NCBI GenBank assembly: GCA_964016885.1
Contig: OZ024742.1
Location: 300,638,001 to 300,702,000, forward strand
DNA from: Eledone cirrhosa
Taxonomy: Eukaryota
Direction: 5' to 3'
Length of the DNA: 64,000 nucleotides
Numbering within the stretch: the first letter of the stretch is position 1; every line of letters starts with the position of its first letter. The notes beneath the pieces were generated by a model. It was given only the letters and a program-made list of their open reading frames with translations. It had not been told where the DNA came from and made no database searches. Below are positions 14,843-14,960 of this stretch, piece after piece. A program made the translations under genes and the position numbers.

Positions 14843-14844
<2 letters not shown>

Positions 14845-14956
14845 CGAAGGAAATGTGGTAAGGAACCAGGTGGACCATAACGCACCAAAGTACTCAATAC
14901 TTGAGGTAGTAGAGTGGGTAATAGGAACCAGTAAGACCCCTGGGGTCTTACTGGTT

Positions 14957-14960
<4 letters not shown>
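14843..14960. mobile_element. Fold-back mini-PLE, same family as 3127-11554, in (TA)n
   Basis: 14843-14940 matches 3127-3224; single T at 14941; 14942-14960 matches 11535-11553. Confidence 0.9.

Follow-up and report, generated by a model that had tools for sequence, protein, structure and literature searches.

A Penelope-like element mini-insertion in Eledone cirrhosa whose two arms meet at a predicted hammerhead cleavage site

Two inverted arms, both beginning at the predicted cut site of a hammerhead ribozyme, make up a 118-bp mini-insertion embedded in a (TA)n tract of the Eledone cirrhosa genome (14843-14960 of the window, that is, of the whole 64,000-nucleotide stretch of DNA analysed here). 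The comparisons presented below make it quite probable that this mini-insertion is a dead-end product: both nicked strands of the (TA)n target would have copied a self-cleaved RNA, and the two cDNAs would have been joined head to head. Judged by its sequence, the mini-insertion is a real feature and comes from a member of a known clade, namely a Hydra-clade Penelope-like element (PLE). Hammerheads occur in nearly all canonical PLEs. The pertinent passages of PMC4209133 describe in vivo evidence as absent, and those of the Hydra-clade paper PMC8557442 term hammerhead function unclear and leave 5' ends unmapped, whereas here the 5' ends are mapped.

The mini-insertion and its parent element

Positions are numbered from the predicted cut: +1 is the first G past the GUC (window 11535 and 7995), and -1 is the preceding C. 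The long arm of the mini-insertion (14843..14940, minus strand) is the reverse complement of pseudo-LTR/tail positions +1..+98, 98 nt identical to 3127-3224. The short arm (14942..14960, plus strand) is +1..+19, 19 nt identical to 11535-11553. Sequence comparison places the 5' end of each arm at the predicted cut. Between the arms stands a single T on the plus strand (14941), which is untemplated, the template base at -1 being C. The (TA)n target flanks the insertion at 14794..14842 on the left and at 14961..14990 on the right. The mini-insertion lacks the hammerhead core and retains just the 3' strand of stem I. A preliminary description had claimed that the insert shares the outer ends of an 8.4-kb head-to-head pair and that both arms start at the first base 3' of the GUC cut, with one extra T; both claims are borne out, the outer ends being those at 3127 and 11553. 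The description also pictured the element as folding back at the cut, and that picture is wrong, as two cDNA ends appear to have been joined. A snap-back, self-primed class of junctions is described for R2 (PMC11331408). Simple snap-back needs a loop and cannot yield a joint like that of the mini-insertion, where +1 is the end of each arm and 0-1 nt separate the two; flanks are unrelated in 28/30 loci.

The same (TA)n tract also holds a lone arm (14991-15131, minus strand) from an older sister family of PLEs with about 70% similarity. This arm begins at the family's own equivalent of -41, and its stem III has a G-C pair where the young family has G.U.

The parent 8.4-kb element comprises a long-tail arm (3127..7496, minus strand), with a partial pseudo-LTR (pLTR), the ORF, a pLTR and a tail to +98, and a short-tail arm (7495..11553, plus strand) whose tail ends at +19. 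The arms are 8 substitutions and 2 indels apart. At 6 checkable substitutions one arm matched every other copy examined, so the differences look private. In the short-tail arm the ORF copy is interrupted twice, at 8815-8817 by a stop and at 9303 by a 1-bp insertion. The open frame at 4412..6766 (minus strand, 784 aa stop to stop) encodes, in a single ORF, an RT followed by a C-terminal GIY-YIG endonuclease (YRDD at 345, VIY..YIG at 588). It has DKT at 114, as against DKG, has no GxKF/Y, and carries RWR at 34, a conservative variant of RWK. The CxCx5C linker reads CNCPDRSIC at 569, CxxC reads CNLC at 667, and CxH reads CKH at 695. The frame has 840 homologues, with about 40% identity among the best 120 of the 840, and a Pfam scan of it returned 0 families. 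Tandem units 3.5 kb apart are also present.

By these motifs and by its insertion into (TA)n, the parent element is a Hydra-clade PLE. Craig et al. (2021, PMC8557442) describe the motif set of that clade together with its inverted 5'-truncated partners, one-sided tails and (TA)n targets. Shared with the elements described there are the C-terminal GIY-YIG domain, DKT, the CxCx5C linker, the CxxC and CxH motifs, the (TA)n target, the pLTR hammerhead, the inverted 5'-truncated partner and the tail at one end; the differences are RWR in place of RWK and a U3-A8 ribozyme core with a stable stem III.

The predicted ribozyme is a type I hammerhead (11436..11556, plus strand) with core UUGAGAA at 11451-11457, GAAA at 11512-11515 and a cut at 11534/11535. 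Further cuts are predicted at 7994/7995 on the plus strand and at 6756/6755 and 3225/3224 on the minus strand. Minimum-energy folding of 11436-11556 yields this hammerhead, with stem I, core, stem II, GAAA, a stem III of 6-7 bp and an unpaired C at 11534; three helices, conserved core and NUH at the cut are all found in that fold. UUGAGAA corresponds to the U3-A8 core variant that PMC4209133 reports from PLE hammerheads. In stability the fold does not exceed its shuffles (z = -0.23; 76/200 of them fold as well), though such an excess is not strictly required for activity, and the hammerhead is absent from the 87 matches of an Rfam scan of 1-20000. The predicted hammerhead likely self-cleaves after GUC, which would leave a 5'-OH and a cyclic phosphate.

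Elsewhere in the window, further near-perfect hairpins lie at 2938-3086, 11615-11654, 12313-12439, 12534-12577 and 19120-19260; the one at 2938-3086 borders the (TA)n tract of the 8.4-kb element and could itself be a mini from a different family. By eye, a 1,085-aa open frame at 33902-37159 (minus strand) reads like an AP-endonuclease/RT non-LTR retrotransposon, and a frame at 29765-30379 (plus strand) resembles a mariner-type transposase fragment. A long satellite with a 63-bp period occupies about 45700-62100 and has very long open frames on both strands.

Genomic 5' ends at +1 and at -41

The tail core has 15,884 genome matches, and the cut site is read through in nearly all of the first 100. 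Head-to-head pairs of a long and a short arm were sorted by D, the gap between the +6 positions of both arms; D = 10 means that both arms end at +1 with zero nucleotides between. There are 274 pairs with D of 0-30, 490 with 31-60, 2,820 with 61-90 and 1,311 with 91-120, which gives 4,895 minis with joints of at most 120 nt between anchors, the total to which all shares refer. Samples are the first rows by position (C1-C3) rather than random draws, and several counts were made by eye.

Both arms lie at the cut, with 0-12 nt between them, in 143 loci genome-wide, as against 0 for a reversed-pattern control. Among the first 100 of the 274 shortest-joint loci, a script places both arms at +1/-1 in 41 (about 112 when scaled), and in 21 more a single arm lies at the cut while its partner ends within +6..-3. 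The cut-site class thus numbers about 110-140 loci, or about 2-3% of the 4,895 minis, most of which end near -41; this small share escaped the preliminary description. The preliminary description had proposed a plot of the 5' ends of genomic copies, and this reveals a sharp, though secondary, peak at GTC|GGGGTC: among the first 100 of the 274 and the first 100 of the 490, joints that combine identical arm ends with untemplated letters fall at +1 in 20 cases and elsewhere in two, one at +5 and one at -18. Spacerless joints (20/41) have an alternative reading, namely a 2-nt CG overlap between arms that both stop at -1. The other 20 joints carry untemplated spacers, so the assignment to +1 stands without the ambiguous ones.

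These +1 events appear to be independent, given 12 different spacers among the 20 spacer-bearing joints, cut-class joints in at least three tail subtypes, and unrelated flanks in 28/30 loci. Two other joints recur in the sample of 100, -14/-14 on an 8-nt palindrome (13/100) and -25/-25 on a 4-nt palindrome (8/100), and both are explained by longer palindromes. By contrast with these, the 6-nt palindrome at -3..-8 gives at most two overlap-type joints (scored -5/-5, with a 7-nt overlap), the single locus with D = 20 being of another type.

Single arms tell the same story. Of 538 arms that reach the cut and then show a non-template base, 66 of the first 100 are true ends by eye, and 22/30 are by script. 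At the control step -18|-19, a matching CC|G step, true ends account for 4 of the first 100 of 990 by eye and for 4/30 by script, and inspection showed 3 of those 4 to be point-changed read-throughs. Scaled genome-wide, there are about 355 true ends at the cut against about 40 at -18|-19.

A separate class of copies bears on the cut from within longer arms. Inserts placed exactly between -1 and +1 occur in 106 copies, the first 100 of which mostly carry one extra G or short duplications. Eleven of these 100 rows, corresponding to 10 loci (L529-L538), have foreign inserts of 5-23 nt. Scored by eye, the control steps -18|-19 (0/71) and -8|-9 (0/35) have no foreign inserts, only duplications and inserts of 1-3 nt. 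Read in RNA sense, the foreign inserts are A-rich in 8/10 and U-rich in 2/10, and their longest exact match within the element is 5-10 nt. The whole ribozyme is carried by 9/10 of these loci, as against 5/28 ordinary read-through arms (p = 1e-4) and 0/13 one-extra-G copies; the tenth locus, L536, has an identical 5-nt insert in both arms. This concentration in whole-ribozyme copies is as predicted by an RNA break that needs a complete ribozyme. It is possible that the foreign A/U-rich inserts record RNA tailing and re-ligation after the cut. We discounted single-base inserts at the cut as evidence, since they are found at control -18|-19 too; there, both arms of one insertion (G000:C28:49654163 and 49654248) share a one-base insert.

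The preliminary description had suggested a genomic footprint of hammerhead activity in vivo. At the level of sequence, that suggestion is supported by the +1 peak and by the foreign inserts exactly at the cut, an independent sign that the description had not anticipated, and we are confident, if not certain, that the ribozyme produced the +1 end.

The commonest 5' end of genomic copies is -41 (11494, also 7954, plus strand). Genome-wide, 5,123 arms stop at -41 before a non-template base. Among the first 100 of these, read by eye, that base is C in 58, G in 35 and T in 7, part of the C and G being contributed by the partner arm. About 4,000 head-to-head minis, each of about 200 bp, stop near -41, and many of them bear an additional G; they form a large palindromic, MITE-like class that likely records a capped start. 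The sequence context at -41 resembles an initiator. In L1, an untemplated G is a sign tied to copying of the mRNA cap (PMC9341517), and for Penelope an internal pLTR promoter is described (PMC2377424). Position -41 is likely the capped transcription start of the element. We also weighed a splice acceptor at -41/-40 and dismissed it, because the ends carry one extra G and no upstream exon. RNA starting at -41 is without the 5' half of the ribozyme and is predicted to fold otherwise, and most minis would therefore be unable to display a cut.

Public contigs (four runs, at most two samples, one study, possibly from the source itself) have a depth that rises at 7952-7960 and drops past 8094, with loose (TA)n ends at 8014 and 8094 and, in one run, two loose ends at 7995; strand-change joints were not seen in them. 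The depth step matches the -41 end, and the contig ends are not counted as support for the cut.

Alternative origins of the +1 end and of its inverted partner

The two cDNA start sites are fixed, at +19/20 and at +98/100. Each is a UAU able to pair with a TA primer, and both share TAT with the (TA)n target. An arm of 19-20 nt was paired with a longer arm in 15/15 loci examined, and 74/90 long arms end at +98 on TA. With the unrelated flanks and the 0-1-nt joint, this pairing supports the two-ended insertion mechanism put forward in the preliminary description. Of the 66 true +1 ends, scored by eye, 47 have an inverted partner, which ends at +1..+8 in 40, is shorter in 2 and extends upstream in 5, the last figure being close to what chance ends would contribute (40 of 355). 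The remaining ends run straight into (TA)n (10), jump into ORF sequence (4) or are otherwise (5). At C1:98560530, C1:265276689, C2:96265061 and C2:105171142, the cDNA continues past +1 in antisense ORF sequence, as if the polymerase had jumped. With 40/47 partners ending at +1..+8, although most arms genome-wide read through the site, the end belongs to the template and not to each polymerase pass.

Both arms likely derive from one RNA, double priming of which is the simplest reading. The strongest competing idea, unlikely but deserving of real weight, accepts the self-cleaved end and supposes that the arms come from two cut RNAs on a protein dimer, for example, monomers from one tandem transcript. 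The PLE protein is indeed a predicted dimer (PMC11167929), tandem units 3.5 kb apart exist, the arms of long insertions can differ widely, and shared private inserts could stem from a mutated source copy. Two independent templates fit poorly with the strict pairing of a long with a short arm, with the tightly matched 5' ends, including the 5-nt insert common to both arms of L536, and with an 8.4-kb pair whose arms differ privately only. The concordance of arms at -4 (59/61) was rejected as a one-RNA test, as subfamilies may differ in age. Two templates would change the two-ended step only, so the ribozyme footprint would be kept.

Could the +1 end arise on RNA that was never cut? Reverse transcriptase might stall at the end of the G4 run or at the foot of stem III, and the stalled cDNAs might then be joined. 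Position +1 does sit at a helix junction and at a homopolymer end, and one-extra-G slippage is the commonest insert at the cut site. A chance stall in 2-3% of passes would, however, rarely hit both arms, yet 40/47 partners end at +1..+8. Moreover, the abundant -41 RNAs share the G run and stem III, and whole ribozymes are found in none of the 13 slippage copies, whereas foreign inserts need them. We consider stalling very improbable.

A further alternative, to which we give about as little credence, is that +1 is a second, weak transcription start on a C|G pyrimidine–purine step and that its match to the ribozyme is coincidental. In its favour, the family has a start-like end at -41, and the first added cDNA base at +1 is C in 10/32, as a cap would give. 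At -41, the corresponding count is 13/17 (p = 0.006), and 1-nt spacers are A/T in 10/10 at +1 but C/G in 3/3 at -41. By the composition of spacers and added bases, the +1 joints look uncapped. Nor can a second start explain the foreign -1/+1 inserts in copies that extend upstream across the complete ribozyme. Finally, central deletion or microhomology joining of longer palindromes, a single amplified master mini, or assembly artefacts can hardly account for the minis, for although the microhomology classes at -14 and -25 exist and the public contigs cover the repeat without spanning the mini junction and its flanks, the 20 untemplated spacers are of 12 kinds, the palindrome at -3..-8 yields at most two overlap-type joints, and the class includes several tail subtypes with unrelated flanks.

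Two other hammerhead families were also searched, each a weak test without a denominator. A second family (L256-L273) has a canonical minimal hammerhead (RF00163), two tail lengths and head-to-head pairs in (TA)n. Both-arms-at-cut joints number 0 among its 19 matches (14 after merging identical ones), and six identical matches join 2-3 nt downstream of the family's own cut. Minimal hammerhead motifs alone are described as inactive or weak (PMC4209133), which, by analogy, may explain the missing cut joints. In the older sister family, the letters of the window copy gave 0 matches, and a relaxed pattern gave one locus, with one arm at +1 and an overlap rather than both arms at the cut.

A model for two-ended insertion and its relation to known systems

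The proposal is that the element's enzyme would nick both strands of a (TA)n tract. In the cut-site class, both nicked strands would prime on RNA already cut by the hammerhead, and their cDNAs would run off at the same new 5' end. This +1 end would be the 5'-OH left when a read-through RNA containing the complete ribozyme cleaves itself. A single RNA molecule would likely serve both primers, with the first displaced by the second. Host end-joining would then seal the middle, with zero to a few untemplated letters kept at the joint. What the DNA itself displays is the end points of each step. Most transcripts would likely start capped at -41, without the 5' half of the ribozyme, and could not be cut; such a preponderance would explain why about 97% of minis read through the site. 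Occasionally, the cut halves would be bridged by 5-23 foreign A/U-rich letters, through RNA tailing and re-ligation or through a polymerase jump across the break. The 8.4-kb insertion spans intact ribozymes, so its template RNA was uncut. Because long ORF-bearing insertions come from uncut RNA, a cut within the 3' repeat is likely a loss of the transcript and not a step in its maturation. Among 20 longer loci, arm lengths are often very unequal; early truncation may be responsible, and both the one-RNA and the two-RNA models allow it.

In L1 twin priming, both target strands prime on one RNA and an inverted junction results, as is proposed for the minis. There, the second primer lies upstream and the cDNAs do not overlap, whereas here both arms copy the same 5' stretch to the end of the RNA.

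The closest experimental parallel is the Anolis Poseidon element PAc (Frangieh et al. 2024, PMC11167929). Its protein cuts and extends both strands and uses two internal start sites, and its ribozyme cuts with the protein present; the relevant passages of that paper report no RNA-seq reads ending at the cut. Common to PAc and the present element are two tail-defining RT start sites, cutting and extension of both target strands, AT-rich targets, and uncut RNA as the productive template. In contrast, for PAc those passages map just the 3' ends of genomic copies, whereas here 5' ends and inserts mark the cut, and each strand of an insertion uses one of the two start sites. The HDV-like ribozyme of R2 (Eickbush et al. 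2013, PMC3774820) likewise sets genomic 5' junctions with untemplated run-off letters. Ribozyme and element class differ, and cutting in R2 makes the normal full-length 5' end; here, unlike R2, the cut marks a minority of dead-end minis, in which the cDNA is joined to a second cDNA and not to target DNA. Non-LTR retrozymes (bioRxiv 10.64898/2026.07.22.740005; PMC4209133) are also short, PLE-derived sequences with type I hammerheads, and cleavage plus re-ligation has been proposed for them. They are head-to-tail tandems of units that each carry a whole ribozyme, whereas the mini-insertion is head-to-head, coreless, and has the 3' strand of stem I only.

The two-start-site tail and the extension of both strands have been published before (PMC11167929), while the genomic evidence for in vivo cutting and for double priming appears new. 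Our search found no title or abstract on PLE 5' ends or inserts at a hammerhead cut; it covered subscription papers thinly, and 5' end coverage that bears on the matter may appear in Fig. S2 of PMC11167929 and the files of PMC8557442.

Hundreds of genomic junctions point to germ-line cutting of a single phosphodiester bond, and from them the proportion of cut to uncut templates can be roughly gauged. The data also make the origin of the inverted partner and of the tail testable, both as to whether one RNA or two served and as to which start site each strand used. Mapping 5' joints and inserts at a predicted cut can be applied to any genome with a high-copy young family. Taken as a whole, the genome may be a fossil record of PLE RNA ends, capped at -41, ribozyme-cut at +1, or tailed and re-ligated after cutting, with one RNA double-primed per insertion and the hammerhead acting as a brake; we offer this wider picture tentatively, as a possibility that falls short of probable. 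If it is true, the inverted partner and the one-sided tail of PLEs, both long puzzling, would follow from the double priming of a single RNA, and through its braking action the hammerhead would convert read-through transcripts into dead-end minis.
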